Shown piece by piece: positions 6,305 to 38,425 of a DNA stretch of 51,580 nucleotides. The DNA is from Bacillota bacterium (GTDB lineage Bacteria > Bacillota > Clostridia > Peptostreptococcales > Anaerovoracaceae). Position numbers and translations under genes: made by a program. Numbering within the stretch: the first letter of the stretch is position 1; every line of letters starts with the position of its first letter. The stretch covers positions 1 to 51,580 of the forward strand of contig JAFRQL010000105.1 of the NCBI GenBank assembly GCA_017428655.1, read 5' to 3'. Below the pieces are notes generated by a model. The model searched no databases. It worked only from the letters and a program-made list of their open reading frames with translations, and was not told where the DNA came from.

Positions 6305-6310
6305 CTCGTC

Positions 6311-16136: not shown

Positions 16137-17903
16137 TTATTTGCTCCCCCTTCTGTCCGGGCCCAGATATCTGAAGGCCAGCATGGTGATGTCGTCGAAC
16201 TGGTCCGCTCCGTCCACGAAGCTGTCGATCTTCTTTCTGACATAGGGGAGTATGACCTCGGGCTTTGAGCTGGACGCGCCGGTCAGGGCCTTCATCATCC
16301 TCGCCTCGCCGAACTGCTGCCTTTCGTCGGTCATTGCTTCGGTGACGCCGTCGGTGTACTGGAAGATGGCGTCTCCGGGGCTGAGGATCATCTCCTGGTC
16401 GGCAAAGGCGGGGTCGTCGTCCTGATCGAGGATCTCGGGCTCGAAGGCTCCCACCGCGACTCCGTTGTGCTTTTCAAGGAGGCTCCAGCGTCCGTCGTGA
16501 TAGTAGGCGGGCTTCTCGTGGCCCGCGTCCGCCCAGATCAGTTTTCCGGTGGAGATCTCCAGGATGCCCAGCCAGACGGTGACGAACATGTAGTACCTAT
16601 TGCCCTCGCAGATCTGCTCGTTGACCCGGTAGAGGATCCCCGCGGGATCGAGGCCCGCGAGAGCGGCGTCCTTGAGCATGGTCCTGGTGGTCATCATGAA
16701 GAGGGCCGCCGGGATCCCCTTGCCCGATACGTCTGCGATCACCATGGCCAGATGGTCGTCGTCGATCATGAAGAAATCGTAGAAGTCTCCTCCCACCTCC
16801 TTGGCGGGATCCATGGTCGCGTAGATGTCGAATTCGGTCCTGTCGGGGAAGGCCGGGAAGGTGCTGGGCAGCATGGCCGCCTGGATCCTGGTCGCAAGAT
16901 CCAGCTCGGTGCTGATCCTCTCCTTTTCCGCCGTTACCCTGGTGAGATCCGCCACCGATTCCTGGGCCTTCTTCTCCATGTCGGCCAGGACGAAGCTCAG
17001 GTTCTCGATCTCGTCTCCAGTGTGGATATCCAGGTCGGCGAAGTAACCGGCCGGGGAAGACTCTCCTGCCTCGTCGTCGATGTAGCGCTGGGCGGCGTCC
17101 GAGATGGTGTTGATGGGACCGATCACGGTCCTGCGCATGTGCCTTACCACCAGGGCGGCAACGATGAAGGCGGCGCATAAGGCTCCTATCAGCAGCTGGA
17201 GTGCGAAGATCCTCATATTCCGGGCTATGTTGGCAAGGGATACGTCGGCCATGACGAAGGCCGCGGTCCTGCCGCTGTCGTCCTTTACCGGGACCCCCGC
17301 GGTGCAGAGCCAACCGCTCCCCTTGATCTTTCTCACGTCGTAGAGGGTCCCCTGGCCGTCCCAGTCAAGGAAGGTGTCCATCTCATCGGACGAGACCCGG
17401 TCCCACTGGCCGGGGAGGCGCATGGTCTCGGGATCCTCATCGGGATCGACGATATAGACGATGGCGCCCGCCGCCCTGTCGTACATGGCCAGGTAGACGT
17501 CGGACACCCCTCTGGTGTCGCAGAACTCCCTGAGGACGTGGCGGATCGCCCCGTATTCGGTAAGCTCCGTGAACTGATCCAGGCTGCTGCGGTATCCTTC
17601 GGTCTCGGTCTTTTCCGACCCGGCCGCCGTGTGCTCCCTGTACTGCTCCAGGACCTGATCGGCCAGGGCAGCAGGATCCGCGTCCTCGTTCAGATCGATG
17701 GACATGGCCGCGTGATGGGCGGTGCTGAAGGCCAGCTCCACGTGCTGGTCGTACATGGCATATGTGTAAAAGCCCAGACCGATGATCTGGGCGACAAGAG
17801 CGAGCACCATGCAGCATATCATTATGGTGTGGAAGATGTGAGCGGAAAGAGCGTAGAACCTCCGCTCGGTATCGTTCATCTCCCGTATGGACTTCTTGGG
17901 CAT
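16137..17903 (-). CDS. Membrane-bound sensor PP2C phosphatase (SpoIIE/RsbU family) with two TM segments, an extracytoplasmic domain and a HAMP-like linker
   Basis: 588 aa with TM helices near aa 20-50 and 225-250. The C-terminal PP2C core has ATRIQAAMLP, GGDFYDF, VIADVSGKGIPAALFM, GHEKP and DDITMLAF. Confidence 0.85.
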   Translation of the reverse strand: MPKKSIREMNDTERRFYALSAHIFHTIMICCMVLALVAQIIGLGFYTYAMYDQHVELAFSTAHHAAMSIDLNEDADPAALADQVLEQYREHTAAGSEKTETEGYRSSLDQFTELTEYGAIRHVLREFCDTRGVSDVYLAMYDRAAGAIVYIVDPDEDPETMRLPGQWDRVSSDEMDTFLDWDGQGTLYDVRKIKGSGWLCTAGVPVKDDSGRTAAFVMADVSLANIARNMRIFALQLLIGALCAAFIVAALVVRHMRRTVIGPINTISDAAQRYIDDEAGESSPAGYFADLDIHTGDEIENLSFVLADMEKKAQESVADLTRVTAEKERISTELDLATRIQAAMLPSTFPAFPDRTEFDIYATMDPAKEVGGDFYDFFMIDDDHLAMVIADVSGKGIPAALFMMTTRTMLKDAALAGLDPAGILYRVNEQICEGNRYYMFVTVWLGILEISTGKLIWADAGHEKPAYYHDGRWSLLEKHNGVAVGAFEPEILDQDDDPAFADQEMILSPGDAIFQYTDGVTEAMTDERQQFGEARMMKALTGASSSKPEVILPYVRKKIDSFVDGADQFDDITMLAFRYLGPDRRGSK

Positions 17904-17915
17904 ACTGCCTCCGTT

Positions 17916-18323
17916 TTACAGGTTCTTGATTATGGTGAGGATGTTCTTTCCGCCCTCGTAGGAGTAGCGGACGTCGTCCATGGTCTCCTTCACCAGAAGG
18001 ATGCCCAGGCCTCCGTCCCTGGCGAGGAGGGCTTCCTCAGAAGTGTCCGCATCGGCCTTTGCCAGGGGATCGAAGGGCTTGCCGTGGTCCATGAACTGGA
18101 TGACCACCCTGAGGGGATCCTCCAGGACCTCGCAGTGGACCTCGGCGGGTCCCACCTCGGGATCGTAGGCGTAGCTTGAGATGTTGACGAAGATCTCTTC
18201 GACGGCAAGGCGCACCTGAAGCTGGATCCGCTGGGGGCAGCCCCGTTCTTCAAGCTTGCCGAGAACGAACCCGTTGACGACGTCGAGATTGGGGATCTCG
18301 GCCGTTACAGTGATATTCTCCAT
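17916..18323 (-). CDS. Anti-sigma-factor-type serine kinase (RsbW/SpoIIAB-like, HATPase_c_2)
   Basis: 135 aa. Has LAVEEIFVNISSYAY (N-box-like), DHGKPFDP and GGLGILLVKETMDDV (G-boxes). Sits between the STAS and PP2C genes. Confidence 0.8.
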   Translation of the reverse strand: MENITVTAEIPNLDVVNGFVLGKLEERGCPQRIQLQVRLAVEEIFVNISSYAYDPEVGPAEVHCEVLEDPLRVVIQFMDHGKPFDPLAKADADTSEEALLARDGGLGILLVKETMDDVRYSYEGGKNILTIIKNL

Positions 18324-18334
18324 GTCGTCCTCCT

Positions 18335-18643
18335 TTAATCCACGAATTTGAAGAGCCTGGTGAACCCAGTGACTTCAAGTACCTCCATGATCGATTTGTC
18401 TACGTTCTTGACGGAGAGGACGCCGCCCTTGCGGCGAAGATCCATGTAGATCCGCTTGAAGGTGCGAAGGCCCGCGCTGGAGATGTACTCCAGCTGCTCC
18501 ATGTCCAGAAGCAGATCGTCGTACTTGGAGGCGACATCCACCAGGATGTCCTCGACCTCGTATGCGTTGGTCGCGTCGATGAAGCCCTTGAGCTTGACCT
18601 CAGCGTCTTTTCCATGCTTGATAAGGCTTATATCCATGCTCAT
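18335..18643 (-). CDS. STAS-domain anti-anti-sigma-type protein (RsbV/SpoIIAA-like)
   Basis: 102 aa. The YISSAGLRTF motif contains the phosphorylatable Ser. SD is CAGGAGGT 9 nt upstream. The ATG overlaps the stop of the upstream gene (ATGA, 18640-18643). Confidence 0.85.
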   Translation of the reverse strand: MSMDISLIKHGKDAEVKLKGFIDATNAYEVEDILVDVASKYDDLLLDMEQLEYISSAGLRTFKRIYMDLRRKGGVLSVKNVDKSIMEVLEVTGFTRLFKFVD

Positions 18644-19299
18644 ATACCGGTTACCTCCTGTACTGATACATTTTCATTCTTTGGTTCTTCTTCTGGGATT
18701 GGAGTTTCCTGAGGAGCGGGGCCTTCCGGCTCCGGTCCTGCCGCTGCGGCATCCTGGGGCGGAACCTGCATGCTTTCCTCAGGCTGCTTTTTCTTCTTTT
18801 CCCTCTTTTTCTTCGCGGGCTTGGGGGGCTCCTCTTCGGAGAGCCTGATGCTGCCCGGGAGTTCCCCGGCCAGAGCCTTCAAAGCCCTGTTTATGGAGAT
18901 CAGCCCGCTGATCCCCCTGCCTGCCCAGGCGGTCACGTAGGGGACCTCGCCCTCGTATTCCAGGGTGATCACCACGGGCCTGGTCATAACATATCTGATG
19001 AAGCAGGCTCTCACGTCCGGAAGCTCCTGCAGTATCAGGGCCCGCCCTATGTTCTGCATTGCCTTGGGGACCGCGGCCATCACCGAGAGCCTGGGCTCTT
19101 TGGTATCCAGCCGCCTGGCCTTCCTCGCCAGACCGAAGAACCTTACCGCTCCGGCTCCGTCGCTGATGCCTATGGGGAGCCTGAAATCGTTCTTCGGGAT
19201 GGAACTGAGCCTGCCGTCCTCGGTGGGGAGCATCCTGCCCATCAAAACGTTTTTTACTTCTTTTTCTGTCGTCATCTCTATCCGGCTTCTCTGCTGCAT
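18640..19299 (-). CDS. Hypothetical protein, 219 aa, globular N-part plus lysine/proline/glutamate-rich C-tail
   Basis: ORF is translationally coupled to the STAS gene and begins 7 nt after the coupling-protein stop. No family recognised and no clear SD. Confidence 0.55.
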   Translation of the reverse strand: MQQRSRIEMTTEKEVKNVLMGRMLPTEDGRLSSIPKNDFRLPIGISDGAGAVRFFGLARKARRLDTKEPRLSVMAAVPKAMQNIGRALILQELPDVRACFIRYVMTRPVVITLEYEGEVPYVTAWAGRGISGLISINRALKALAGELPGSIRLSEEEPPKPAKKKREKKKKQPEESMQVPPQDAAAAGPEPEGPAPQETPIPEEEPKNENVSVQEVTGI

Positions 19300-19305: not shown

Positions 19306-21360
19306 CTAATTATCCCCGGAGCCCGCGGCCTGGTCCATGCCCAGGACCTTCTCGTTCCTCTCGCTGAGGTCGTAGTAGATCTCGTCCGCCCTGAACATCT
19401 GGCTGCGGATCTCGGTGAGATCCATTGGCCCGAATTTATAGTACGGACACTTGTAGGACGGGGTGTACTTGGTCTTCATGGGGAAGGAGTTGAAGGAAAC
19501 TATGATGGAGTTTCCGGTGCTCTCCTGGTTGTTGAGCCTCTGAAGCTCGCTGGGGTAGATCAGCGGGCGCACCTGGGTGTTGCTGGAGACGTTGATGTCT
19601 CCCGACTTGCTCCCCAGTGAGCTGGACGTGCTGGTCGTCCTTACGGTCATGTTGCCGCACATCTCGGAGAACATCTTGCAGGTGTCGGTGTCGTTGGATC
19701 CGATGAACATATTGACGCCGCAGGTGCCTATGACGATGTCCGCGACCTCCTTGCCATAGACGTTGGTCAGCTGGACGAAGGACTGGACGACCATGGAGAA
19801 CCAGATCTTTCTGGAACGTCCGACGGTGATCATCTGGCCGAACTTGTCGATCTTGGGCATGTTTCCGAACTCGTCCATGATGAAGTAGACGTTTCTCGGA
19901 AGGGTCTGGCCCGGCAGGTTGGTCGCCACCTTGATGAGAGCCTTGTATGTGCTCAGGATGAACAGGGACGCCAGGAAGTGGCGGGTGTCCTTTTCATCGG
20001 GTATCTTGAGGAACAGCGCCGTGGGCTCGAAGGCGAACCGGTCGGCGTGGATGTCGGTGGTGCTGGTGAGGCCGCAGAGACCGCGGTCGTTGAAGATGCT
20101 CATCTTGTCGAAGGTGATGGACATGTAGGAGCCCAGGGTCGCCTCCGGGGCGGTCATGACCTGACGGGACAGCTGGTAAGCCTGGGAGAGCTTGCTCCTG
20201 CCCTCGAAGTAGTCCTTGAGCACCTTGTAATTGTTGTCCGAGTTGCCCAGGGCCTTGTTGACGTTGAACAGGTTGAACTTGTCCTTGGTCATGCCCAGCT
20301 TGGGATCGGTGCTGTCCTCAAGCATGGCCAGGACCGTCGCCATGACGATGCTCCTGGCGCCGCGCTCCCACAGGGGATCCTTCTCGTTCTGGATGGGGAT
20401 GAGTCCGCCTATAAGATCCGAAAGATCCTCGTACATCTCGTCGTAGATCTTCTGCTGGGCCACCGATACGTCGTCCCTGCAGTGGCCGAGATCCAGGTAG
20501 GCCTTGCCGTCCCATTCGACCCAGGGCTCGCCCTCCTCCGCTTCGCCGTTCATCCTGCGAAGATCCGGATAGTCGGACATGGGGTCGGTGTGGGCGGTTA
20601 TGCCCTCTCCGGCCTTGACGTATTCCTGATAGGCGTCCCAGATGGGCTCCAGCGGGTTCCAGCGGCTGGAAGAGTAGGTGTCTCTCAGGTCCAGGACCTG
20701 CACGTTGTAGCCTCTCTCCTTGAGGAAGGCGCTGTGAAGATCGAAGAGCTCGCCCTTGGGGTCCGTCATGATCATGGAGGACCCGCAGCTGGTAGCGCCC
20801 AGGAGCTGGATCATGGGGCTGATGAAGGTGGTGGTCTTACCGGAACCGGTGGCGCCTATGACCAGAGCGTGGACTCCGGGCTTGAAATTGCCCACCAGGT
20901 TGCCCTTCTTGTCCAGGACCGCCCTGACGGGGACTCCGTCCTTCTTGACCTCGCTGATCTTGTCGTAGCTGAAGGTCGGGAAGTACTTGTCCCTCTCTTC
21001 TTCGGTGAGGAAGCGGCTGTTCTCGAGGGAGCCCATGACCACGTCCTTGTCGGCGCCTTTTCCGCCCAGAAGCCCTCTTCCCTTTTTGCCGGTATTGATG
21101 AAGCCTCCGTTTATGGTGTAGATGGCGCCCATCAGAAGGTTCAGGATGAGACCCGTGAACCAGGTGGCGGGCTCTATGAGCATCCTCAGGCGGAAGCGCC
21201 AGGGCTCGCCCACGACCACCGATGAGATGTTCTCAAAGAGAAAGCGCAGCACGCAGCCCAGAAAGAGGGACGAGACGATGAATATGCCTATATATATGGC
21301 GATCGTCTGCTTGTCCAGCTCTTTGAATCTTTCCGCTATGCTGCCGAATAGTTTCTTCAT
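19306..21360 (-). CDS. Type IV secretion coupling protein (VirD4/TraG/TraD family ATPase) with N-terminal TM anchor
   Basis: 684 aa with two N-terminal TM helices. Walker A is HALVIGATGSGKTTTF; also MIMTDPKGELF and SSRWNPL. Walker B region is YFIMDEFGNMPKI. VVQSFVQL matches the family's Q-rich motif. Confidence 0.8.
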   Translation of the reverse strand: MKKLFGSIAERFKELDKQTIAIYIGIFIVSSLFLGCVLRFLFENISSVVVGEPWRFRLRMLIEPATWFTGLILNLLMGAIYTINGGFINTGKKGRGLLGGKGADKDVVMGSLENSRFLTEEERDKYFPTFSYDKISEVKKDGVPVRAVLDKKGNLVGNFKPGVHALVIGATGSGKTTTFISPMIQLLGATSCGSSMIMTDPKGELFDLHSAFLKERGYNVQVLDLRDTYSSSRWNPLEPIWDAYQEYVKAGEGITAHTDPMSDYPDLRRMNGEAEEGEPWVEWDGKAYLDLGHCRDDVSVAQQKIYDEMYEDLSDLIGGLIPIQNEKDPLWERGARSIVMATVLAMLEDSTDPKLGMTKDKFNLFNVNKALGNSDNNYKVLKDYFEGRSKLSQAYQLSRQVMTAPEATLGSYMSITFDKMSIFNDRGLCGLTSTTDIHADRFAFEPTALFLKIPDEKDTRHFLASLFILSTYKALIKVATNLPGQTLPRNVYFIMDEFGNMPKIDKFGQMITVGRSRKIWFSMVVQSFVQLTNVYGKEVADIVIGTCGVNMFIGSNDTDTCKMFSEMCGNMTVRTTSTSSSLGSKSGDINVSSNTQVRPLIYPSELQRLNNQESTGNSIIVSFNSFPMKTKYTPSYKCPYYKFGPMDLTEIRSQMFRADEIYYDLSERNEKVLGMDQAAGSGDN

Positions 21361-21389: not shown

Positions 21390-22472
21390 TTACTGTATGA
21401 TCTCGTGAGACCGGATCATGAGCCTTCCGCCTTCGGTCAGTTCGACTCCGAGGACGACCTGGACCGCGGCGGTCTCGCTGCTGATCCTTATCTCGGCTGC
21501 TCCCGGCTCATTCCCGGGCAGGATGAAGGCCTCGCAGAAGCCTCTGTCGCTGAATACGCCGCCGTCTCTTGCTGTTCCCTCGCTGCTGGTCTCGATGATC
21601 CAGTCGGACGGGAAGTCATAGATCACGGGATCCGGCCCCTCGGGGCGTTCCTCGGGCTCTGTGTAGTCCCCTTCGCTCTTGACCTTGGCGCTCTCATCGA
21701 CGGCGCCGGTGCTGACGATATCGAAGAGGGGCACCTTTTCATCGGTCCCTTCGAGATAGATGTAGATCTCTCCTTCCTCGACGGATATCCTTCCCTTGGG
21801 CCAGCTTGGATCGATGGGATATTCCTTGCCGTCGTAGACGAAGGTCGCCGGCTCGATCTGCTCCGCCGAGGCCTCCTCCTGAGAGGCTGCCCCGCCGAGG
21901 CTCATCACGATGACGGAAAGACCGCCGCCGTCCTCAGGATGGCAGACGTAGGTGTATCTTCCTTCCTGCGGGCCGTTCACCTGATCCTGGATCTGATATC
22001 CGGACCAGCTGAGCAGGCTCAGGTCGTAGCCCCCGCCGTTGGCAAGGGAATCGACGAGCAGATCCATCCTGTAGACGGCATTGCCCGACTGGTCGAAAAG
22101 ATCCAGGTCGAGATCGGAGCGGCCGACGCCGCTGGCCGAAACGGTGAAGGCCGTGCCGTCCTTGGGCTGCTTCTTATCCTTTTCTATGGTGAGTATCGAG
22201 GAGGGCTCCCGGTATTCCCAGACCCCTCCCGGCGTCGCCGAAGTATCGATCCTGAGCTTCAGCTGCCCGTCCTTGTCGACGCCCCAGCTGACGGGATAGG
22301 GAGTGCTCCCCTCCGCGGTCTTCATGACCGTCCTGCTGCCCCTGACTATAAGGGCGAGGATGACCACCGCAGCGACAACGGCGAGAAGGCACGCGATCAG
22401 GGTCACGGTGGACCTGATCCTCGCCTTCTCCGCTTCGCGGTCGCTCTCAAATATCAGTTCGTCTTTTGCCAT
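21390..22472 (-). CDS. Bitopic membrane protein, 360 aa (short cytoplasmic N-end, one TM, about 310-aa ectodomain); function unknown
   Basis: TM is VTLIACLLAVVAAVVILALIV at aa 23-43. Tightly packed between the giant protein gene and the coupling protein gene. Confidence 0.6.
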   Translation of the reverse strand: MAKDELIFESDREAEKARIRSTVTLIACLLAVVAAVVILALIVRGSRTVMKTAEGSTPYPVSWGVDKDGQLKLRIDTSATPGGVWEYREPSSILTIEKDKKQPKDGTAFTVSASGVGRSDLDLDLFDQSGNAVYRMDLLVDSLANGGGYDLSLLSWSGYQIQDQVNGPQEGRYTYVCHPEDGGGLSVIVMSLGGAASQEEASAEQIEPATFVYDGKEYPIDPSWPKGRISVEEGEIYIYLEGTDEKVPLFDIVSTGAVDESAKVKSEGDYTEPEERPEGPDPVIYDFPSDWIIETSSEGTARDGGVFSDRGFCEAFILPGNEPGAAEIRISSETAAVQVVLGVELTEGGRLMIRSHEIIQ

Positions 22473-22486: not shown

Positions 22487-25400
22487 TTATTCGGTAACGG
22501 GGTCGGGAGCAGGCGCGTCTTCGGAACCGCCCGCGGAGCTGCTGTCAGAGGTGTCGCCGGCGGAAGATCCCGCATCGGAGGAGCTGCCGCTGTCAGAAGG
22601 AGCGTCTCCACCTTCAGACGGGGAAGCAGACTGGGAACCGCTCTCGCTCTGGCTGCCGCCCTCTTCCGTCGAGGCGCCCTGAGAGGGCGCTTCGGAGGAC
22701 CCTGAGCTGCCGGAGCTTTCAGATGAGCCGGAGGAGCCGGAACTGCCGGAGGATCCGGAGCTTCCGCTGCCGGACATCTCCGCGGCCCTTGCCGCTGCTG
22801 CGGCTGCGGCTGCCGCAGCGGCCGCCTCGTTGGCGCTCTGTTCGTTCTTCCAGAGGGTCACCGCGTTGGTCAGCTGGTCGGCCTCGGGATAGACCTTCAC
22901 GTCCACCGTGAACAGTATATCCTCGAGCTCCTGGCTCCTTACGGTGATCCTGTAGCTCAGATCGCGTCCGGTGAAGTTCCTGGGAGCGGTGAAGTTGACG
23001 TTCCCGTCGTTCCTGAAGCTTCCTGCGGACTTGGTCAGTTCGTTGATTATCGCCTCTACCTGAGCCGCGGCTTCTCTTTCCGCCGCGCTGTCTCCGCTGA
23101 TCCTGCTGAGCTTGGCGCTGCTCAGCAGCTGGGACAGGTAGCTGTCGGTATATCCGTGGGTCGCGCCCAGGCTGGCGGCGCTGGAGGCGCCGGTCTGCGG
23201 ATCGTAGTTCTCGATCTGGGCAGTGATACCCGAGGTGGAGCCGTGGACGGTGGGATCGATCCTCAGCACGTCGCCGGAATCCAGCAGGGTCGAGAGGTTC
23301 TCTCCCGAAGCCACGGTCTTGGCCTGGCTGGGCACTCCTATGGATGCGCTGCCGCTGTAGACCAGACCGGAGAGCAGGATGTCAGCAAGGCCGATATGGG
23401 CAGGCTTGCCCTGGACTATCAGCTGGTCGTAGACCCTGGTGATGGACCTTCCGCCGTTGCCAATGACAGCGGTGAGCCTGCTCAGCTTCCAGGAGGACGC
23501 GATGTAGCCTTCGCTGTTCCTGGGCTCCAGCTCGATGTATCTGAGCTCCGCCATCTCCGGGACCAGGACGCCGATCTCATCGACGCTTCCCGCGGCGAAG
23601 CCGCCTCCCTCGGACACGTAGCTTCTGATGTTGTCTATAGTGTATGTTCTCATCACGCCGTAGGAGTCGTAGTATCCGACGGTCATGGCGATGGGATCTG
23701 TGGTGCCGCTGTGGATGGAGCTGTCGTCTCCCGCGGTCTCAAGGGTGAGCCTGAGCAGACCGACGTTTCCGGAGAAGGGGTACCTGGCGGGCCTCTCCGA
23801 AGGCGAGACGGTGCCGCTGATGCTCCTGGTGAACAGGGTCTCTCCCTCAAAGCTCTGGGCTTCGACGTACATGTTCTGGATCTTCGCGTCCAGGCCTCCC
23901 TGGGCCGTTATGAAGGCTCCGGTGATGTCGCTGACGTTGCCCAGATCGAAATCGATCTCGATGAGCTGGCAGGGCGCGATCTGGGTGATGCCCAGGTCGG
24001 ACAGGTAGATGAACCTGCTCCTGAGCTCCTGGCCCGAGGGATCGTCTCCCTTGAAGAACAGCGCGATGGCAAGATCCTTGTTCATCGGATCCAGCTGCTG
24101 GGTCTTTATGTCCGGACTCATCTGCAGTATGAGCTTCTGAGTGCCGACCTCCTGGACCCTGTCCATGCTGAGGGTCCCGCCAAGGCCCGCGTTGGCCGTG
24201 CCGCCGAGATAGTAGCTCTCGATGAGCACTCCTCCCCTGACTCTCTGGAGCATGCCGTAGTTGATGGGCACGTGGAGATCTTCGGTGAGGGACATGGCCT
24301 TGACGTCGACTCCGTTGATGGCCTCCATGTTGCTGGTGTCGACGCCCAGGGCGTAGAACACGGGCACGTCGTTCTCGTCGACGGTGAACCTCATGGGTCC
24401 GGTGGAGTTCTGCATGGGCAGCTTGGTCATCACGTTGGTGTAGCGGATGGCGCCGGTCATGGTGTAGTTCTCGGGATCGCTGGTCTGATCGGTGATCTGC
24501 GGGTAGAGGAACAGGTTGACGGTGTCGTCCTTTGAGTTGGGCTCTCTCGGGACCACGGTGGTCCACTTGCCCTGCTCGCTGATGCTGATGGGGCTCTCCT
24601 TGAGGGCTATGTTGATCTCCGCGATGGAGTTGTTCTGGTCGGTCCTGTAGACCTGGACGTCCTTGGTCAGTGTCTCGGTCCTGGTCCAGGTGGTGATGAA
24701 GGTAGGCTCCATCCCGACGGGATAACCGTAGTCATACTCGCCGTTGGCGTTGATGAATCTGCGTCCGGTGCCGTTGACCAGGGAGATGTTTATATCCTGG
24801 ATGGGCCAGTTGGTGACCACGTTGCTCCTAAGCTGCAGCTGCATGTCCGCGAACTGGTAGATGTCCTTCACCGTGATCAGGAAGTTGTCGGTAGTGCTTG
24901 CCCTGAACTGGTAGTTGGGGTCGCTGACGTAGTAGTCCAGATCGTTCTCGGTGACCACGGCGTTGTCGTATTCGACGGTGCGGCTCTTGCTTCCGGTGCG
25001 TCCGGTGTACTTGTTCATCAGCTCGATGACGTCTATGCCCTTCTTGAACTGGAACAGTCCGTCGGTGTCGAAGTAGTGATAGGACATGGACATTCCGCCG
25101 GAGTAGACCTCGTCGTTGATCAGTATGCTCTTGCCGTTCTTGTCGGTGACCCTGTGGGTACCGTAATTTCCGGTGGTGATGCTGATGAGGAACTTGGCGT
25201 TGTAGCTGGATTCGGTGATCTGGTATACGGTGGCGATCTCGGAGGCGCTGTGGCCCGCGGCTCCCTTATAGCTGGCGTATTCGCCGGGATCCCTGTAATC
25301 GATGCCTACCCAGCCCAGACCGTTCTCGTCGTTGCTGGACGCGGTCCAGGTGGGGCTGAGAGCGTCGTTGGTCTCCTTTTCCACCGTGATGTATTCGATC

Positions 25401-27898
25401 TTCAGCTTGTCGTAGATGTCGCTGTTGCCGTCCTGGTTGTCCGGGATGACCATGATGGAGACCAGGTCTCCGTAGTCCTGGCTGGCAGGGATGCGGAACT
25501 GGCATTCGTCGCCGGTCCTGAAGGCGTCGCCCTGGATCTGCTGGTTGGCAAGGGTGCAGCCGCTCTTTCCGTGCTCAAAGATGAGCTGGAAGTAGAACAG
25601 GTTCTTGCTGCCTGCGTCGTCGTCCTCGTGGGAAGGATTGACCAGATCGCCCTTGACCTTGACGGTGACCAGGTAGCTCCCGCGCTCCTTGGTGAAGCCG
25701 AAGTCCTGCTTGGTCTGCTCATAGGTCATGCTGCGGCGCACGCTGTCCCAGTCGATCTCGTCCTTCTTGCTGACCTCGCTGCCTTGACCGTTGAACTCGA
25801 CGGTGGTGCCGTCGTCCTGGATCAGGGTGCCGGGCACCCAGTCTTCGCCGGGCACGGGCACGGTCTCGGTGGGAGCGTAGGTGGTTCCGATGGAGAAGCA
25901 GACGTCCTTGGTGGTCACCGCTCTTGAGTAGCGGACGTGGGAGAGATACTTGGGCTGGCTGGTATTGGGGACCAGCTCGGTGCTGCTGATCTCCTCCCAC
26001 TGGGCGACCCTGCTGTCTACATAGCTTGCCCTCTCCTCCGAGGGCTTGACCATGGCGATGGAGACTCCGGAGAACTGCCATTCGTCGCCGCCCTCCAGCT
26101 TGAAGCCCACTCCGGTGAACTGCTTCACGCCCTGCAGAGGCACGATGAACTGGACGGTACCGCCCTGGCGCAGACCGTATTTATACGCGAAATCGTCCAC
26201 GTTCCCCGGCCATTCGCCGTAGAACATCCTGACGTATTCCCTCACATCGTACGCGGGGCTCACGATCTCCTTGTCCTTGATGCTGATGTAGCTGAACTGG
26301 ATCTTGAGATCCGATTCGGTGCCCGCGTTGCCCACGTTGTCGGTGGAGATGGTCACCAGGTAGCGCTCGAGCCTGTCCACGGGCTTGAGGACCAGGTATT
26401 CGCTGTAGGGCTGCAGGGAGAAGTATTTATACGAGTTGCTCCCGGGAGCCGCGTCGATGCTGATGCCCTCGATGCTGGTCGCGGTGCTGTATTTGACGGG
26501 GTTGTTGTCTCCGGCGACATAGCTGGTGCGGACGGTGGCTCCGTCAAGGCCGGCGCTGGCGGTCGCCGCGTCGTAGACCGCGATGCAGGTGTAGCTGATG
26601 GAGTCGGACTCGCTCAGGACCTTTCTGGCTTCCCTTTCGGTCTCGGCAGCGGAAGACCTGGAGACCGGGACCTCGGCAAGGCCCGCTTCCGCGGCCGCCG
26701 AGGATTCGCCCAGGATGATCCCGATGCTGGTGATCTCCCTGTAATCGGGGAGCATGGCCGGAACTGCAAGGCTGTCGCCCTGCTGGGCAAAGCCGGCTAT
26801 GGCGATATCGCCCATCTCTTCCATGATGGGTCCCAGGGAATTGATGGCAAGAGGAAGGACGACGTCCCTGCTGGCGCCGAAGATGTCGACGTATCTTATC
26901 TGAAGGGCCGCCGTCTCGCAGAAGCCCAGATCGGAGACCTTGGACATGCTGCCCGCGGCGTATGATCCGGCTAATGACTCAAAGCCCGCCCCGCCGGTAT
27001 CCGCAAGGTCCAGCCTTATGACCACCTTTTTGGTGGTCTGGGTGCTGTGGGCCTGATCGATGTGGGTCGTCTGTCCGGTGGCAGCTTCGTAGGCCTGCCT
27101 GCTCGTCCTGTCGACGACGACCGCTCCGGCGAAGCCCCCCGCCCCGTAGGCCTTGAGGTTGTACATCCCTCCGCTGGTCTCCCAGTTGAAGATGCCCGCA
27201 CCTGCGCCCAGCTGAAGCTCCGCGAAGACGCTGCCTTCGAAATCGATATAGGGGAGATTGGAGAACCATCCGTACATATCAAGGCCGTAGACCGCGCTGA
27301 CTTCGTATATGCGCATGGCCTGACAGATCCACTGGCTGGAGGTCTTGGACCTCTTTCCGAAGATCTGGATGCCGGTGATGGAAGTTATCTCTTCGGGGGT
27401 TGTGAACAGGAACTGGTCGGTCTGGACCGATCCCAGGGCCTTGTAGCCTTCGGCGTCGCCGGCAGGGGCGTATCCGAAGCCGGAAGCGGCGATGGACTTT
27501 CTGCTGCTCCTGCTGCCGTACTGCTCAGCCTTGTCGATGCCGTCGGAGATGCCGTCGACGTTGGGCATGATTATGGCGGACCTGCTCACGGCGGTGGAGC
27601 CGGAGCCTGTGGTATAGCTTACGACGAAATAGAGCACGTTGTCCGCGATGGTACCCTTTGCCCTGGAGCCGCTGCTGACCTCAAGGATGTAGGTGTTGGT
27701 GGTCGGGGTCGGCGCCGCGGCCGCGGCGTCCTGAGTCTTGTTTACAGGAAACCAGTCTATGGCGAAGGCCTCAGCGGGGACCGCCGAAAGGAGCACGGCA
27801 AATACCAGCAGAAGGGAGGCAGTGCGCCTGATCCTGCCGGCTGCTGCGAGCCTTTTGAGGCATTCCTTTATTCCTTTTTTCTTACGACCATCCATCAT
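22487..27898 (-). CDS. Giant secreted protein, 1803 aa: Sec signal peptide, about 7-8 beta-sandwich modules with PLAT/LH2-like sequence logic, and an Ala12 plus Ser/Gly/Asp/Glu low-complexity tail
   Basis: SD AGGAG is 7 nt before the ATG at 27898. The signal peptide is RRTASLLLVFAVLLSAVPAEAFA. Recurrent modules look like VTISTDNVGNAGTESDLKIQFSY...GGTVQFIVPL...FTGVGFKLEGGDEWQFSGVSIAMV. No LPXTG and no TM anchor. Confidence 0.75.
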   Translation of the reverse strand: MMDGRKKKGIKECLKRLAAAGRIRRTASLLLVFAVLLSAVPAEAFAIDWFPVNKTQDAAAAAPTPTTNTYILEVSSGSRAKGTIADNVLYFVVSYTTGSGSTAVSRSAIIMPNVDGISDGIDKAEQYGSRSSRKSIAASGFGYAPAGDAEGYKALGSVQTDQFLFTTPEEITSITGIQIFGKRSKTSSQWICQAMRIYEVSAVYGLDMYGWFSNLPYIDFEGSVFAELQLGAGAGIFNWETSGGMYNLKAYGAGGFAGAVVVDRTSRQAYEAATGQTTHIDQAHSTQTTKKVVIRLDLADTGGAGFESLAGSYAAGSMSKVSDLGFCETAALQIRYVDIFGASRDVVLPLAINSLGPIMEEMGDIAIAGFAQQGDSLAVPAMLPDYREITSIGIILGESSAAAEAGLAEVPVSRSSAAETEREARKVLSESDSISYTCIAVYDAATASAGLDGATVRTSYVAGDNNPVKYSTATSIEGISIDAAPGSNSYKYFSLQPYSEYLVLKPVDRLERYLVTISTDNVGNAGTESDLKIQFSYISIKDKEIVSPAYDVREYVRMFYGEWPGNVDDFAYKYGLRQGGTVQFIVPLQGVKQFTGVGFKLEGGDEWQFSGVSIAMVKPSEERASYVDSRVAQWEEISSTELVPNTSQPKYLSHVRYSRAVTTKDVCFSIGTTYAPTETVPVPGEDWVPGTLIQDDGTTVEFNGQGSEVSKKDEIDWDSVRRSMTYEQTKQDFGFTKERGSYLVTVKVKGDLVNPSHEDDDAGSKNLFYFQLIFEHGKSGCTLANQQIQGDAFRTGDECQFRIPASQDYGDLVSIMVIPDNQDGNSDIYDKLKIEYITVEKETNDALSPTWTASSNDENGLGWVGIDYRDPGEYASYKGAAGHSASEIATVYQITESSYNAKFLISITTGNYGTHRVTDKNGKSILINDEVYSGGMSMSYHYFDTDGLFQFKKGIDVIELMNKYTGRTGSKSRTVEYDNAVVTENDLDYYVSDPNYQFRASTTDNFLITVKDIYQFADMQLQLRSNVVTNWPIQDINISLVNGTGRRFINANGEYDYGYPVGMEPTFITTWTRTETLTKDVQVYRTDQNNSIAEINIALKESPISISEQGKWTTVVPREPNSKDDTVNLFLYPQITDQTSDPENYTMTGAIRYTNVMTKLPMQNSTGPMRFTVDENDVPVFYALGVDTSNMEAINGVDVKAMSLTEDLHVPINYGMLQRVRGGVLIESYYLGGTANAGLGGTLSMDRVQEVGTQKLILQMSPDIKTQQLDPMNKDLAIALFFKGDDPSGQELRSRFIYLSDLGITQIAPCQLIEIDFDLGNVSDITGAFITAQGGLDAKIQNMYVEAQSFEGETLFTRSISGTVSPSERPARYPFSGNVGLLRLTLETAGDDSSIHSGTTDPIAMTVGYYDSYGVMRTYTIDNIRSYVSEGGGFAAGSVDEIGVLVPEMAELRYIELEPRNSEGYIASSWKLSRLTAVIGNGGRSITRVYDQLIVQGKPAHIGLADILLSGLVYSGSASIGVPSQAKTVASGENLSTLLDSGDVLRIDPTVHGSTSGITAQIENYDPQTGASSAASLGATHGYTDSYLSQLLSSAKLSRISGDSAAEREAAAQVEAIINELTKSAGSFRNDGNVNFTAPRNFTGRDLSYRITVRSQELEDILFTVDVKVYPEADQLTNAVTLWKNEQSANEAAAAAAAAAAAARAAEMSGSGSSGSSGSSGSSGSSESSGSSGSSEAPSQGASTEEGGSQSESGSQSASPSEGGDAPSDSGSSSDAGSSAGDTSDSSSAGGSEDAPAPDPVTE
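22490..22835 (-). repeat. Low-complexity coding tract: Ala12 run, (GSS)n-type tandem codon repeats and an S/G/D/E-rich tail
   Basis: The DNA shows reiterated GGAGGAGCC/GGAACTGCC/GGAGGATCC-type units and a GCN x12 run. The protein reads EAAAAAAAAAAAARAAEMSGSGSSGSSGSSGSSGSSESSGSSGSS... Confidence 0.8.
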
Positions 27899-27935: not shown

Positions 27936-30900
27936 TTACGCAGTCTCTCTCATCTTTCTGCGCCTGTCCTGCTGAGCCTTGGCCTCATCGGCAAGATCCT
28001 GCAGGCTTATGGTCATAGTCTCCTGACCGTTGCAGCGCATCCTCTCGAAGAGCGACATGTCTCTCAGGTGTGCGGCGAAGCTGCAGAACGAGCTCATGAA
28101 ATCGTCGTCCTCGTCTTCGTCGTCATCATAATCGTCGGTATCGAGGCCTGGTACGGGCTCGTCTTCGATGCTCTCGACGTCCACGGACTCATCCTCGTCA
28201 CCTTCTGCATCCCAGCCGTCGTCCTCGTCCCATTCATCCTCTTCTTCCTCGTCGTCTTCAGCGGAAGCGAACAGGGTCATCAGGTCGCCCTCTTCCTCTT
28301 CTTCGCTGTAGCCTTCGTCGTCGGGAAGAATGTAGCCTTCGGGCTCTTCCGAGGGCTCTTCTCCTGCGGCCTTCGGCTCTTCCTCCGCGGCCGCTTCTGC
28401 CGCGGCTTCAGCGCTTCTGGCCTTTTCCAGCTCCTCCTTCAGGCGGCGGATCTCTTCGTCCTTTTCCTTCTCAAGGCGGATGATCTCCTCATCCTTTTCC
28501 CTGAGCTGCGGGGCGGTCTCCTCTGCTGGAGCCTCTGCGGCCCGGGGCCGGATCTCTTCGGCGGCGCTCTTTTGAGCTGCCCTGGGAGCGGTGCCTTCAG
28601 CTGCGTCCGCCATCCTTCCGAGGGCGTCGGCTATCATGCTGAAGACCGCCATGGTCTGGTCACCGGAGGAAGCAAGACCCGCGAGGCCTGCTCCCGCGGC
28701 GTCTGCCCTGGCCACGGCCTGCTCCGCCTTTGCTCTCTTATCCAGTGCGGAATCGAATTCCTCTATATCGTCCAGGCTCAGGTCGTCGTCATCGTCGATG
28801 TGGAAGGTGACTCCGCCTGCCGCTGCCTTGGACGCCTCTTCGTATTCATCCTCTTCGAACTCGGTGAAGGACACGCCCTTGCCCGAAGCCGCGGGCCTTG
28901 CGCCCTCTTCAGATCCTTCGATGAGCCTGGGCTGCTTCTGCCTTGCGTTCTCTTCATGGAGGGCCCTGCTCACGCCGACGAAGGCCTCCCAGTTCTCGTC
29001 CCCTCCGACGCCGGAGAAGTACCTGCTCTGGTAGTCCCTGCTTTCGAACATGTCCGAGATACCGGGCGCGGTCTCGATCTGGAAGGACGACCTGCTGGTG
29101 GGGCTCATGACGACGAAGGCCTGGCCTCTGGGCGCCTGGACTATCTCTTCCTGCTCGGTCTCGTTGATGCCTCCGGCCTTTTCGTACAGAGTGACCAGGT
29201 CGGACATATCGTTGGGCGCCAGCGAGAAGATGAAGCTGTACTGGCAGGCGTTGATGATCGCGGTGGACTTTCTCGCCAGTTCCTCCGAGCCCACGAAGTC
29301 CTTGATGTTCTGGGTTATGACGATCTGCATTCCGTTGTACTTACGGATGCGCTTGGCCAGCTGGAACATGAAGTCCAGGGCTATGGGGAACTTGGCGTCG
29401 ATGAAGACGTGAGCTTCGTCGATGACCACGACGATCTTGCGGTTGGCGTGGTATTTGGTGTTGTAGTCCCTGTTCTTGATGATCTCGTTGTCTATGTACT
29501 TGAGCACCAGCAGCATCTGCGCGTTGGCGATGGTGTTGTTGCGGTTGGCCAGCATGGACTGGAAGTTGAACACGGTGAAGTTCTCGTCGGTGGTGACGGT
29601 GGAGGGACCGTTCCAGATGTTGGCGTTGCGGCCGCCGGTGGAGAACTTGGCGATGTAGTTCATCAGGGTGCGGAGCAGGTCCCTGGTGAAGGGGTTGTCG
29701 CTGCTCTGGAACTCCTGGAGGACCTCGTCGTAGAGGTCGTCGAAGATCGGATAATCTGCCGGGCCCAGCTTTGAAAGGTCGGTGTCCGCGGTGATGTCCT
29801 TGCTCATGTACATGTGGTCCACGAGGGTGTTGAGATACTCCATCGCGTCCTTCTCGCAGTCGGGCATGATCTGCTTGAAGAACTCCTCGAGGAACTGCAG
29901 GTGGGTGGCGTAGCTGCCGCTGGGGCCCTCTTCTCCCGCTTCATCGTCGTCGAGGGCAGTGATGATGTGGAAGGGGTTTAGCCTGCCGTACTGGGCGTTG
30001 CCCACGTTGATGATCTGGCCGTGGAGGTTGGCCGCCAGCTCGGAATACTCGTTCTCAGGGTCGAGGATGAAGATCTTGGCGTCCTCGGCGGCAAGGTTGG
30101 TCAGCAGGGACTTGGTCGCGTAGGATTTACCGGAACCGGACTTGCCCACGATGACCATGTTGCTGTTGACCCTCTCGCTGTCCCTTCTGAAGAAGTCGAT
30201 GAACACGGGGATGCCGTCGCTCTCGCCCAGCTTTATGCCTCCCTCATCGGAGACGTGGGCGAAGATCCAGGGGAAGCAGGCAGCTACGGTATTGCTGGAG
30301 ATGCCTCTGCCGTCCTTGGCCAGAGGATCCAGGGCGCTGATCTGGGAGCCGATGAAGGCCTGGACCTGGTCGAACTCCATGTTGTTGAGCCTGAATCCGC
30401 TCTCCTGCCACGCCCTTCTGATGTTCTTCTTCATCTCGTTGAAGTTGGGCAGCTGGCTCTCGGGGGGCTGGGGGATCTTGTAATTGTTCCTGGTGGAAAC
30501 TATGTCGTAGGCGGTGATGTAGATGTTGGTCTCGAGCAGGGACTCGCTGTCGTTCTGAAGGGTGGTCAGAAGGTCCTGCAGGGTCGAGATGTGGGTCTCG
30601 ATCTCCATGCGCCTGGAATCCACGCCGGTGGCGGACCACTGTCCCCTCAGCTCGGTGAGGGAGTGGTCGATGTTCCTGATGGCCTTGCCCCTGTCCATGG
30701 GCGTGCACTTTACGACCACCTTGGTGCCGGGCATGCTCATGACCGAGGCCAGCCAGGCGTCTCCCACCGTGGTCGGGTAGTTCACCACGCGGAAGTTGTG
30801 GGTGATTATATGATTGACCTCGACTCTTCTGGGCTTGATGTCCACGATGTTGGGCTGGGCCCAGATATGGTAGTCCTCGGGACGGATCTTCTCGATGTCC

Positions 30901-32117
30901 CTCTCGTCGAAATCGATCTGATTGGAGTACTTGAGGAAGATGGCCAGCTCCTTGTCGTCCAGCCTCTTCACGGTCATCTCGCCGTTCTTCAGCAGCTGCT
31001 CGGCCTCTCTGATCTGGTTCTCCAGCTGGCGTTTGTCGCTCTCAAAGAGCACCAGGTAATAGAAGCTGTCGGTGATCTTCCTGTTGGTGCAGTATCCGTT
31101 GACCTCGTTGATGCGGTCGTACTCCACCTCGACTCTGGCCTTGAGCTCGTCCTCTTCCAGGACGCCATTCTCGTAGCTCTGGCTGAGCATCTCCAGCTTC
31201 TCGTATTCCTTGTCCAGGTAGCGGTCGTACATGATGGGCCGCTCCAGCTTCACGATGTTGGCGCTGTAGCCGGGATGGATGGACCTGAGCACCCTGCCCA
31301 GGCAGTTCTCGATGGAGTTGTTCCTTCTGTGCTGGCTGAAGAAGCGGAATTCCACGGGATCGATCTGAAGGACCGCCCCGTAGTAAGATCTGTTCAGATA
31401 TTCGATATAGCCGTCCTTGATCCCGGTGAAGGGGATGATCTCCTCCATGTCGGCCCTGCTCTTCTCGGCGTCCTTCGCCTCGGCGAGTTTTTGCATGGAG
31501 ACGCGGCTCTCTTCTTTTCTTCTCTCGCGGATGGCTTCCTTTTCTTCTTCGGAAGCTTCTTTGCTCTTGAGGATCCGGTCCTCTTCCTTTCTGGCCTTTT
31601 CCCTGGCCTTGGCCTCCTGCCTGGCTTCCTTCTTTCCGGTCTTTTTGACCGCGCTGGCTACCGCCCTGTCGTCGTCGCTTCCGGCCTGCAGCCTCGCCTT
31701 TTCCTCGGCCCTGGCTTCGGCCTTCTGCTCTCTGCTGATCCTTCTTTTCTCCGCTCTGGTGAGCTCTCTCTTGCTGCCTTCTCCGAAGGCCTGGTCGAAG
31801 GCGGCCTCCTTTTCGCCCTTTTCCCTGACCTCTTCGAGCATCTGATCGTTTTTGACCCTCTCGAAGCGGCGCTTGTAACCGATGAACGTAAGGATGTGGA
31901 GTATGTATACGAAGTTGGGCTGCTCGTCCATCCTGAAGAGCAGGAGGGCCGTCAGCGCCGCTATCCCGATGAGGATCCCGCCCTTCCAGGGAAGATTCGA
32001 GACCAGCACGAAGATGACCATCGCCATGGCGATCCCCGCGACTATCACGTCGCCCAGGGTCACGCCCTTGAACAGCTCTATGCTTACTTTTGTTTTACCG
32101 GGTATAAGTCTCGGCAT
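27936..32117 (-). CDS. PrgI/VirB3-like membrane domain fused to a VirB4-family T4SS ATPase, with a charged coiled-coil insert and an acidic C-terminal extension of about 350 aa (1393 aa total)
   Basis: The N-terminal 2-TM segment (KVSIELFKGVTLGDVIVAGIAMAMVIF...ILIGIAALTALLLF) resembles PrgI/VirB3. The VirB4 core has IIPFTGIKDGYIEY...LQIDPVEF, Walker A MVIVGKSGSGKSYATK and Walker B KIVVVIDEAHVF. The tail is D/E-rich (DDEEEEDEWDEDDGWDAEGDEDE). Confidence 0.85.
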   Translation of the reverse strand: MPRLIPGKTKVSIELFKGVTLGDVIVAGIAMAMVIFVLVSNLPWKGGILIGIAALTALLLFRMDEQPNFVYILHILTFIGYKRRFERVKNDQMLEEVREKGEKEAAFDQAFGEGSKRELTRAEKRRISREQKAEARAEEKARLQAGSDDDRAVASAVKKTGKKEARQEAKAREKARKEEDRILKSKEASEEEKEAIRERRKEESRVSMQKLAEAKDAEKSRADMEEIIPFTGIKDGYIEYLNRSYYGAVLQIDPVEFRFFSQHRRNNSIENCLGRVLRSIHPGYSANIVKLERPIMYDRYLDKEYEKLEMLSQSYENGVLEEDELKARVEVEYDRINEVNGYCTNRKITDSFYYLVLFESDKRQLENQIREAEQLLKNGEMTVKRLDDKELAIFLKYSNQIDFDERDIEKIRPEDYHIWAQPNIVDIKPRRVEVNHIITHNFRVVNYPTTVGDAWLASVMSMPGTKVVVKCTPMDRGKAIRNIDHSLTELRGQWSATGVDSRRMEIETHISTLQDLLTTLQNDSESLLETNIYITAYDIVSTRNNYKIPQPPESQLPNFNEMKKNIRRAWQESGFRLNNMEFDQVQAFIGSQISALDPLAKDGRGISSNTVAACFPWIFAHVSDEGGIKLGESDGIPVFIDFFRRDSERVNSNMVIVGKSGSGKSYATKSLLTNLAAEDAKIFILDPENEYSELAANLHGQIINVGNAQYGRLNPFHIITALDDDEAGEEGPSGSYATHLQFLEEFFKQIMPDCEKDAMEYLNTLVDHMYMSKDITADTDLSKLGPADYPIFDDLYDEVLQEFQSSDNPFTRDLLRTLMNYIAKFSTGGRNANIWNGPSTVTTDENFTVFNFQSMLANRNNTIANAQMLLVLKYIDNEIIKNRDYNTKYHANRKIVVVIDEAHVFIDAKFPIALDFMFQLAKRIRKYNGMQIVITQNIKDFVGSEELARKSTAIINACQYSFIFSLAPNDMSDLVTLYEKAGGINETEQEEIVQAPRGQAFVVMSPTSRSSFQIETAPGISDMFESRDYQSRYFSGVGGDENWEAFVGVSRALHEENARQKQPRLIEGSEEGARPAASGKGVSFTEFEEDEYEEASKAAAGGVTFHIDDDDDLSLDDIEEFDSALDKRAKAEQAVARADAAGAGLAGLASSGDQTMAVFSMIADALGRMADAAEGTAPRAAQKSAAEEIRPRAAEAPAEETAPQLREKDEEIIRLEKEKDEEIRRLKEELEKARSAEAAAEAAAEEEPKAAGEEPSEEPEGYILPDDEGYSEEEEEGDLMTLFASAEDDEEEEDEWDEDDGWDAEGDEDESVDVESIEDEPVPGLDTDDYDDDEDEDDDFMSSFCSFAAHLRDMSLFERMRCNGQETMTISLQDLADEAKAQQDRRRKMRETA

Positions 32118-38333: not shown

Positions 38334-38381
38334 GTGATTTTCTCCTTCCTTAAATTTATGATCCACCGGACAGTCCGGCGC

Positions 38382-38425
38382 ATTCTCAATTTGAACTCTA
38401 ACAAGGGCTGTCCAACAAATGTCCA
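38382..38425 (-). promoter_or_regulatory. Activator-type promoter: TGGACA-TTTGT-TGGACA direct repeat plus a -10-like GAGAAT 21 nt downstream (copy A)
   Basis: CTGTCCAACAAATGTCCA (plus, 38408-38425) is identical to 16075-16092. GAGAAT is at 38387-38382 (minus). A 13-bp palindrome CCGGAC-A-GTCCGG (38366-38378) follows. It lies in the gap between the kinase stop and the pilin-like gene. Confidence 0.55.

Follow-up and report, generated by a model that had tools for sequence, protein, structure and literature searches.

A giant exported protein with predicted PLAT-superfamily modules has a fixed place in a compact type IV secretion-like operon of Clostridia

The DNA analyzed here, called the window throughout, is a 51,580-nt contig (JAFRQL010000105.1, assembly GCA_017428655.1) of a Bacillota bacterium assigned to the Anaerovoracaceae. 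Its minus strand, on which all features of the giant protein and of the surrounding cluster lie, carries at 22487..27898 a gene for a protein of 1803 amino acids (aa), referred to below as the giant gene and the giant protein. In this study, we followed up an initial annotation made from the sequence alone and found that the giant gene is a fixed member of a minimal Gram-positive type IV secretion system (T4SS) operon, which appears to be related to the integrative conjugative elements (ICEs) of Mycoplasma and includes a STAS/RsbW/PP2C set. The open reading frame (ORF), whose disruption the initial annotation had named as a ground for abandoning its reading, was found intact, with a stop codon and an AGGAG box 7 nt 5′ of the ATG as a good ribosome-binding site. 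Its product would have a mass of ~190 kDa. Since the gene lies only 37 nt behind the stop codon of the gene before it and 14 nt ahead of the next one, and a promoter and terminator scan of the region returned nothing in excess of shuffles, it belongs to an operon with closely spaced genes. At its N-terminus the protein has a long basic stretch, then a hydrophobic core (aa 26-48) and an A-x-A-type cleavage site (AEA/FA), a layout shared by nearly all full-length homologs, and we annotate aa 1-46 (27761..27898) as a Sec-type signal peptide.

Behind the signal peptide, a conserved core (aa 60-1680) can be divided into units in the order M1, L1, M2, L2, M3, L3, M4, L4, M5, M6, M7, M8, M9 and M10, followed by a helical hairpin with a small beta unit, a long helix and a disordered tail, with the borders placed by AlphaFold secondary structure. 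Six of these units are predicted to belong to the PLAT superfamily. M1 (aa 60-212, 27263..27721) is a PLAT-like module with the motifs GTIADNVLYFVVSY and SQWICQAMRIYEV, M2 (aa 289-400, 26699..27034) a divergent PLAT-like module, M3 (aa 509-620, 26039..26374) a PLAT-like module with GNAGTESDLKIQFSY and GDEWQFSGVSIAMV, M4 (aa 737-845, 25364..25690) the one canonical PLAT/LH2 domain, M5 (aa 893-1043, 24770..25222) a PLAT-like module with NWPIQDINISLV, and M9 (aa 1376-1498, 23405..23773) a PLAT-like module with HSGTTDPIAMTVGYY and SSWKLSRLTAVIG. The AlphaFold models place helical inserts in M1, M3 and M5. Between these modules lie a conserved non-PLAT beta linker domain that no PLAT-like profile recruits (L1, aa 213-288, 27035..27262) and, from the model and the iterative search described below, two further conserved non-PLAT domains (L2, aa 401-508, 26375..26698; L3, aa 621-736, 25691..26038). 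The C-terminal half adds a small beta domain without family match, seen in the AlphaFold model (M6, aa 1044-1120, 24539..24769), a beta-rich module of beta-sandwich size (M7, aa 1121-1236, 24191..24538), a possible seventh PLAT-like module (M8, aa 1249-1368, 23795..24154), a small immunoglobulin (Ig)-like beta domain with a weak Big_9 match that is duplicated in the tails of many homologs (M10, aa 1503-1570, 23189..23392) and, again from the AlphaFold model, the helical hairpin with its small beta unit (aa 1571-1680, 22859..23188).

The modules do not form the plain tandem array that the initial annotation had pictured, since they alternate with other conserved domains instead of repeating one unit head to tail, and for the N-terminal half a compact body of several packed domains is predicted. 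AlphaFold2 with family alignments modeled aa 46-900 with a predicted local distance difference test score (pLDDT) of 88.7 and a predicted template modeling score (pTM) of 0.78, and aa 845-1700 with a pLDDT of 85.9 and a pTM of 0.60. Because relatives with as little as 24% identity keep the same core order throughout its 1,600 residues, the module count seems to be fixed and not variable. M4 is the most conserved part, with a mean of 56% identity across the family vs. 30-49% elsewhere and many invariant residues.

Self-BLAST of the giant protein, part of the check on internal repetition that the initial annotation had suggested, found no internal matches, and any repetition must therefore be ancient and visible only at the level of profiles. 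The module alignments were built from 75 full-length homologs (39-51% identity) and ~70 distant ones (24-33% identity; 73 species genomes), aligned to the family hidden Markov model (HMM). The distant homologs, taken from genome loci, were added because an earlier sliding-window hhalign comparison with close homologs only had given a best probability of 85%. With the enlarged alignments, M3 and M5 align over their full length with a probability of 98.2% (E 6e-14), followed by M5-M9 and M3-M9 (96.7% each), M1-M3 (96.5%), M1-M5 (95.2%), M2-M9 (94.0%), M2-M3 (88.4%) and M3-M8 (75.8%). The scores of these eight pairs range from 32 to 79, and those of the seven pairs at ≥88% probability from 36 to 79, against reversed-profile control scores that average 10.9 and reach 24.4 at most. 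The direct comparison of M4 with M3, M5 and M9 is borderline, with a score of ~24 that equals the control maximum.

Iterative HMM searches join M4 to the others. When the iteration was seeded with M3, M5 joined in round 1 and then M1; when it was seeded with M9, M3 and M5 joined in round 1 and M1, M2 and M4 by round 5 (77 of the 150 M2 orthologs were recruited in that round), while L1-L3, M6, M7, M8 and M10 were never recruited. The merged profile, which scores 41 bits on M2, marks exactly six regions of the giant protein (67-202, 318-417, 506-633, 717-845, 932-1051 and 1377-1497) and has no hits on reversed sequences (best E 0.29). In the alignments the modules are in register, with strand 1, '(A/S)GT-x-(D/E)' and strand 2 at the start (a strand pair of the pattern 'T-x-x-...-(A/S)GT-x-(D/E)') and a 'W-x-x-x-x-[IV]-x-[IV]' terminal strand at the end. 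The seven motifs quoted in the initial annotation are all present, all in register in the profile alignments and all inside these six modules. Its count of at least seven similar segments held in part: profile comparison makes a solid case that M1, M2, M3, M4, M5 and M9 are homologous to one another, M8 is weakly linked as a seventh PLAT-like module, and the eighth candidate, M7, has no profile link to the other modules by either hhalign or iterative HMM.

The resemblance to PLAT/LH2 domains, also proposed initially, was supported by several routes. Pfam PLAT (PF01477) matches aa 756-843, within M4, with 38.3 bits (gathering score 23; E 2.5e-9) and the excised M4 segment with 30.2 bits; in single-sequence Pfam scans of ten excised segments, M4 was the sole match. 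Twelve of 42 M3 orthologs match Pfam PLAT (best E 2.5e-4) and three match ATS3, a family of the PLAT clan, whereas the corresponding ortholog scans of M9 (0/36), M8 (0/45) and M7 (0/43), which serve as negative controls for the M3 result, gave no PLAT match. Profiles of M3, M9, M5 and M4 had nothing significant among PDB sequences, where the best match was the PLAT domain of 5-lipoxygenase to M4 (E 0.45), and a PDB sequence search with the whole protein matched only artificial GSS linkers through the tail. At the level of structure, Foldseek places PLAT domains at the top of its PDB matches for both halves, with a probability of 1.00 over 118-169 aligned columns; they come from 5-, 8R- and 15-lipoxygenases, pancreatic lipase-related proteins, lipoprotein lipase and alpha-toxin. 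As the second model (aa 845-1700) shares a single residue with the Pfam-matched module, at least one further module should be PLAT-folded. A fold search of the C-terminal half against BFVD gave low-probability Ig-like strings with a root-mean-square deviation >20 Å and was discarded as meaningless. We thus assign M4 to PLAT by the family's own criterion, M3 through its orthologs, and M1, M2, M5 and M9 to the PLAT superfamily by their predicted homology to M3 and M4.

Known PLAT domains attach the proteins that contain them to lipid surfaces or to partner proteins, as in lipoxygenases, lipases and alpha-toxin. The giant protein could accordingly be a membrane-active factor, an idea already raised in the initial annotation, that is released by Sec and docks through its PLAT modules on the membranes of protozoa, fungi, host cells or bacteria, being co-regulated with the T4SS and not a part of it. 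The lipid-docking enzymes and the toxin among the Foldseek matches would fit such a role, as would a signal peptide in a protein with no anchor. However, Pfam, NCBIfam and PDB sequence searches returned no catalytic or pore-forming domain in the giant protein, and its gene keeps a fixed place in dozens of species, either between virB4 and virD4 or between STAS and other regulators, so that we consider a released factor quite unlikely.

The C-terminal tail behaves differently from the core. All that follows ~aa 1685 is unconserved in the family, including an Ala12 run (aa 1692-1703, 22790..22825), which lies within a predicted long C-terminal helix (aa 1676-1699+) that is a charged helix in relatives, and a low-complexity stretch of (GSS)n and acidic Ser/Gly-rich sequence (aa 1709-1803, 22487..22774). 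Among 147 relatives the tail ranges from 0 to 984 residues; five have poly-Ala of ≥5 residues in it and (GSS)x2 occurs in the window protein alone, so the Ala12/GSS tail appears to be lineage-specific. The initial annotation was right that such a tail exists. Its suggestion of reiterated DNA that could slip is weak, because mixed codons (GCG, GCC, GCT and GCA in the Ala12 run; GGC, GGA and GGG for Gly and AGC, AGT, TCC, TCA and TCT for Ser in the GSS stretch) make the DNA a poor slippage substrate, with a longest perfect tandem repeat of 12 nt and Tandem Repeats Finder matches of 69-85%. The proposed comparison of tract lengths showed no change in contigs from three metagenomes of one study (runs X1-X3). 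A contig from run X5, of another study, skips 106 nt and inserts 7 nt at 22585-22690, a net in-frame loss of 99 nt or 33 codons that falls in the acidic Ser-rich part of the tail, outside the Ala/GSS part. Tails of relatives carry RicinB lectins, collagen repeats, Flg_new repeats, CxxC motifs or extra copies of the Ig-like M10 (homologs P0023, P0048, P0051-P0054 and P0018, and loci L005, L013 and L048 among others), with 'PPTATEQGYT..C..CGYSY' as a Cys-type motif, and the C-terminus of the giant protein therefore looks like a swappable module. At the other end, homologs P0088, P0089, P0097, P0111, P0172 and P0179 and locus L024 (422-8410) have 800-1100 additional residues ahead of the conserved core.

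In principle, the disordered and acidic C-terminus might act as a secretion signal, and the giant gene lies near a gene for a VirD4 coupling protein, which together raise the alternative that VirD4 recruits the giant protein for passage through the channel into a target cell. However, the Sec signal, which is conserved and of the cleavable type, would place the protein outside the cytoplasm before any contact with VirD4, the tail is not conserved, and a mass of 190 kDa with many stable beta-sandwiches is unfavorable for unfolded translocation. A translocated effector is thus very improbable.

The cluster around the giant gene reads, in the direction of transcription, pilin-like, orf841, orf327, VirB6-like, VirB4-like, giant, orf360, VirD4, orf219, STAS, RsbW-like and PP2C/SpoIIE. 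The first gene (38055..38429) encodes a small membrane protein that resembles T4SS pilins and VirB2 or VirB3 (Pfam PF18895, 41 bits; NCBIfam Mbov_0395 family, 55 bits with a cutoff of 40). It is followed by orf841 (35353..37878), a large predicted exported protein without family match, and orf327 (34315..35298), with a signal peptide and a C-terminal transmembrane (TM) segment. The VirB6-like protein (32197..34302, 701 aa) is predicted to be polytopic and matches the NCBIfam MMCAP2_0566 family with 141 bits (cutoff 90). Directly upstream of the giant gene lies the gene of the VirB4-like ATPase (27936..32117, 1393 aa; Pfam P-loop_TraG/DUF87), which scores 535 bits with the NCBIfam Mbov_0397 family, just under the equivalog cutoff of 590. 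This Mycoplasma ICE VirB4 family is its best model, compared with 147 bits for the Firmicutes CD1110 family. The ATPase is unusually long, having an N-terminal TM pair that is possibly a fused VirB3 and ~380 extra C-terminal residues. Directly downstream of the giant gene is orf360 (21390..22472), a bitopic membrane protein by TM prediction, followed by the VirD4-type coupling protein (19306..21360, 684 aa; Pfam T4SS-DNA_transf, E 2.7e-48, and TraG-D_C).

The remaining segment (16137..19299), identified with Pfam and syntenic in related loci, consists of orf219, which has no family match, and a partner-switching set of a STAS protein (18335-18643), an RsbW-like kinase with a HATPase_c_2 domain (17916-18323) and a PP2C/SpoIIE phosphatase (16137-17903) with a predicted TM sensor of two TM segments and an outside loop. 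No sigma factor gene lies near this set, and the T4SS itself may therefore be the regulated output of the partner switch. The orf219 stop overlaps the STAS start by 4 nt (18640-18643), and the gaps between T4SS genes that were checked measure ~6-80 nt, with a wider called gap of ~180 nt ahead of the pilin-like ORF; this overlap and the short gaps suggest translational coupling across the cluster.

Flanking the cluster are ligA and pcrA at 40.7-45.1 kb and genes for an aminotransferase and an M20 peptidase at 11-13.6 kb. A glutamate fermentation operon of the methylaspartate pathway (135-8605, minus strand), with genes for methylaspartate ammonia-lyase, mutase E, MutL, a fused fumarase-C/B12-binding protein, fumarase alpha and citrate-lyase-like CitF and CitE, identifies the window as core chromosome. 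On the other side, G+C content drops to 0.447 at 46001-48000, compared with ~0.59 elsewhere, around a Cro/CI-type (HTH_3) regulator gene at 46135-46755 and with no transfer RNA (tRNA) gene. The cluster does not have the marks of an ICE: no relaxase, integrase or transposase was matched by Pfam or NCBIfam among ORFs of ≥150 aa in the 51.6-kb window, which contains no tRNA, and the cluster has an even G+C content with its flanks and abuts housekeeping genes. Six cluster ORFs have no family match, and a novel relaxase could be among them.

The association with a T4SS-like machine that the initial annotation had asserted is supported outside the window. An exhaustive HMMER pass through 1.84 billion representatives returned 294 relatives of the giant protein, 211 of them at E <1e-30 and almost all with the same layout; the few source names available for homologs read 'hypothetical protein'. 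The giant gene is carried by 77 related loci from 73 species of rumen and gut Clostridia (labeled Oscillospiraceae, Acutalibacteraceae, Lachnospiraceae, Ruminococcus and Dysosmobacter), in which tblastn found VirB4 in 68, STAS in 62, VirD4 in 60, the VirB6-like protein and orf327 in 56 each and orf219 in 45. The housekeeping flanks of the window were found by tblastn in none of the 77. In a distant branch the order changes to VirD4, orf327, VirB6, VirB4, STAS, giant, orf219, RsbW and PP2C, and the gene set is unchanged. The same gene neighborhood occurs on independent metagenome contigs, the window sequence itself is present in bovine, goat and other gut metagenomes, and one homolog comes from a named genome record that is not a metagenome-assembled genome (MAG), Lachnospiraceae bacterium C10 (locus L063). 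Some MAGs have two different copies of the giant gene, as in the case of L024 and L030, two distinct giant genes of one MAG that each stand beside their own VirB4 and VirB6-like neighbors; an identical pair in another MAG (L015/L020) is possibly an assembly duplicate. Synteny with VirB4, VirD4, the VirB6-like protein and STAS in 56-68 of 77 loci, together with the nearly uniform collinear architecture of the ~294 relatives, speaks so plainly against a generic large adhesin that has landed in the operon by chance that this explanation is scarcely credible. In the searchable paper library we found no description of this protein family in work on PLAT and T4SS, on partner switching with VirB4 and VirD4, or on bacterial tandem PLAT; a preprint on the 'Hodor' megaplasmid proved to be unrelated.

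Evolutionary rates within the cluster bear on what the giant protein may do. Across loci, the ATPases keep a median identity of ~71-73% and the giant protein one of 27%, which, together with the variable C-termini, suggests evolution of the kind seen in surface proteins. We propose that the giant protein is a fast-evolving extracellular contact arm of the Mycoplasma-ICE-like T4SS, a reading to which we give about an even chance of being right. The protein would be exported by Sec, its signal peptide cleaved, and it would be kept at the cell surface by non-covalent contacts with the products of orf327, orf841 and orf360. Its PLAT modules, together with the lectin or Ig-like C-terminal additions of relatives, might then bind lipid, glycan or protein of a target cell and hold that cell close enough for the channel powered by VirB4 and VirD4 to work, making the giant protein a functional analog of the PrgB-type mating adhesins and of CDS14 of the Mycoplasma ICEs.

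Several points weigh against a contact arm of this kind. The earlier statement that the protein has a Sec signal peptide and no anchor motif was borne out: beyond the hydrophobic core there is no TM segment, lipobox Cys or LPXTG sorting signal in the giant protein, and the family has no genuine sorting signal or anchor of any kind. Sortase anchoring by a C-terminal LPXTG, hydrophobic segment and basic tail was considered and rejected, as none is present, and the two LPPTG strings found in homologs have neither hydrophobic segment nor basic tail. Retention at the surface is thus an assumption. The C-terminal third of orf841 contains Tyr-rich stretches ('YYFD / VYYD / YYYSE') that resemble cell-wall-binding repeats, and for this reason orf841 could be the missing anchor of the complex. 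Docking on lipid is not an obvious way to hold a bacterial target, because the wall shields the membrane of a Gram-positive recipient, and PLAT modules can be purely structural or protein-binding. The Foldseek matches hold for each half model, with the aligned module not reported, and L1-L3, M6 and M7, conserved domains without family match, could hide an activity. Short contigs from ruminant metatranscriptomes map at ≥95% identity along the whole cluster including the giant gene, which is weak evidence of its transcription, as these are assembled contigs of low depth that could reflect DNA carry-over.

Neither Pfam nor NCBIfam recognizes an equivalent of VirB1, VirB8 or VirB10 in the cluster, leaving room for the giant protein as a structural part: a stalk or scaffold that forms a wall-crossing conduit or sheath in place of parts of the VirB8, VirB9 and VirB10 type, with the PLAT modules as rigid bricks that bind no target. 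The packed N-terminal body, a core that stays strictly collinear over its whole length at 24-31% identity, and a strongly conserved M4 with invariant residues, as expected of a protein-protein interface, are all consistent with such a part. On the other hand, the giant protein is far more divergent than the channel ATPases, and the variable lectin and Ig-like additions at its C-terminus point outward, to a ligand; on balance we find a stalk doubtful.

A broader version of the contact-arm reading concerns the machine as a whole. The cluster could encode a chromosomal, non-conjugative T4SS that is switched by the membrane PP2C sensor through STAS and RsbW, with the giant protein as a target-recognition arm whose lipid-binding PLAT array docks on the membrane of another cell for the delivery of cargo. 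The missing relaxase is suggestive with regard to protein as opposed to DNA cargo, but relaxases go unrecognized in Mycoplasma ICEs too, and we regard this version in its entirety as unlikely. If true, Firmicutes would possess a contact-dependent T4SS dedicated to this purpose, with an adhesin of a novel type, the target being a bacterium, a protozoan, a fungus or the host, and docking of the PLAT array on membranes would provide a new model of how a monoderm secretion machine finds its target.

It is useful to set the giant protein beside the PLAT proteins that are already known. LOXHD1, with 15 PLAT repeats, and polycystin-1, which also bears PLAT, are eukaryotic proteins grouped as multi-PLAT, and they resemble the giant protein in combining several PLAT modules in a single polypeptide that is extracellular or close to the membrane and has no catalytic partner. 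The giant protein differs from them in being bacterial, in having its modules interleaved and not head to tail, and in its position in a secretion-system operon; it shows no sequence relation to them beyond the domain superfamily, and they are absent from the relatives found by exhaustive HMMER. Relative to PF01477 in general, the giant protein's modules share in register the 'AGT-D' loop after strand 1 and the 'W-x-x-x-x-V-x-V' strand, but five of its six have diverged too far to be matched with Pfam or with PDB sequence profiles. In contrast to the PLAT domains of lipoxygenases (at the N-terminus), of pancreatic and lipoprotein lipases (at the C-terminus) and of clostridial alpha-toxin (its C-domain), several of those in the giant protein have helical inserts, and no enzyme domain is attached to them.

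As to secretion systems, T4SSs of Gram-positive bacteria work without pili and rely on exported surface adhesins such as PrgB (PMC12857230, PMC12102498). Like PrgB, or aggregation substance (PMC12857230), the giant protein is a large Sec-exported protein within a Gram-positive T4SS cluster with a proposed role in cell-cell contact, but it has no LPXTG anchor, no polymer-adhesin or GbpC domain by Pfam, and another fold repertoire. Mycoplasma ICEs offer a second comparison. The VirB4-like, VirB6-like and pilin-like proteins of the cluster match best the NCBIfam models built on ICE proteins, where the corresponding T4SS parts are CDS17 for VirB4, CDS16 for the VirB6-like protein, CDS15 for the pilin or VirB3-like protein and CDS5 for VirD4. 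In the Mycoplasma ICE T4SS no equivalents of VirB1 or VirB8 and no relaxase have been recognized (PMC6030558, PMC12857230), which is also the case in the cluster described here, and the question of an oriT is merely raised by transposon-sensitive non-coding regions (PMC6030558, PMC12857230). A surface lipoprotein encoded by the ICE cluster, CDS14, is essential and promotes contact between donor and recipient (PMC6030558), so that an exported surface protein is needed for contact there. CDS14 is, however, a small lipoprotein in comparison with a multi-PLAT giant, and the window differs from the ICEs in a VirB4-like protein that scores just short of the equivalog cutoff, in having no DDE transposase or other mobility gene and in the partner-switching set attached to its T4SS.

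What was known already is thus the PLAT domain type and the idea of an exported adhesin linked to a T4SS. A bacterial protein with six or more predicted PLAT-superfamily modules, five of them invisible to Pfam, appears to be new, as do its apparently constant position in a minimal clostridial T4SS that resembles those of Mycoplasma ICEs and the apparent coupling of such a T4SS to a partner-switching set. Lachnospiraceae bacterium C10 may bring laboratory tests within reach, provided that the strain can be obtained and proves amenable to genetics. These predictions would extend PLAT/LH2, a superfamily familiar chiefly from lipid enzymes of eukaryotes and a single clostridial toxin, to a multi-copy architecture in bacteria. 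Whether Gram-positives have T4SSs dedicated to anything but the transfer of plasmids or ICEs has been described as a long-standing open question (PMC12857230). It is touched by the compact T4SS-like operon described here, which is conserved in 73 species or more, shows neither relaxase nor integrase within the window, has its own post-translational switch and encodes a very large exported protein whose composition is without precedent.

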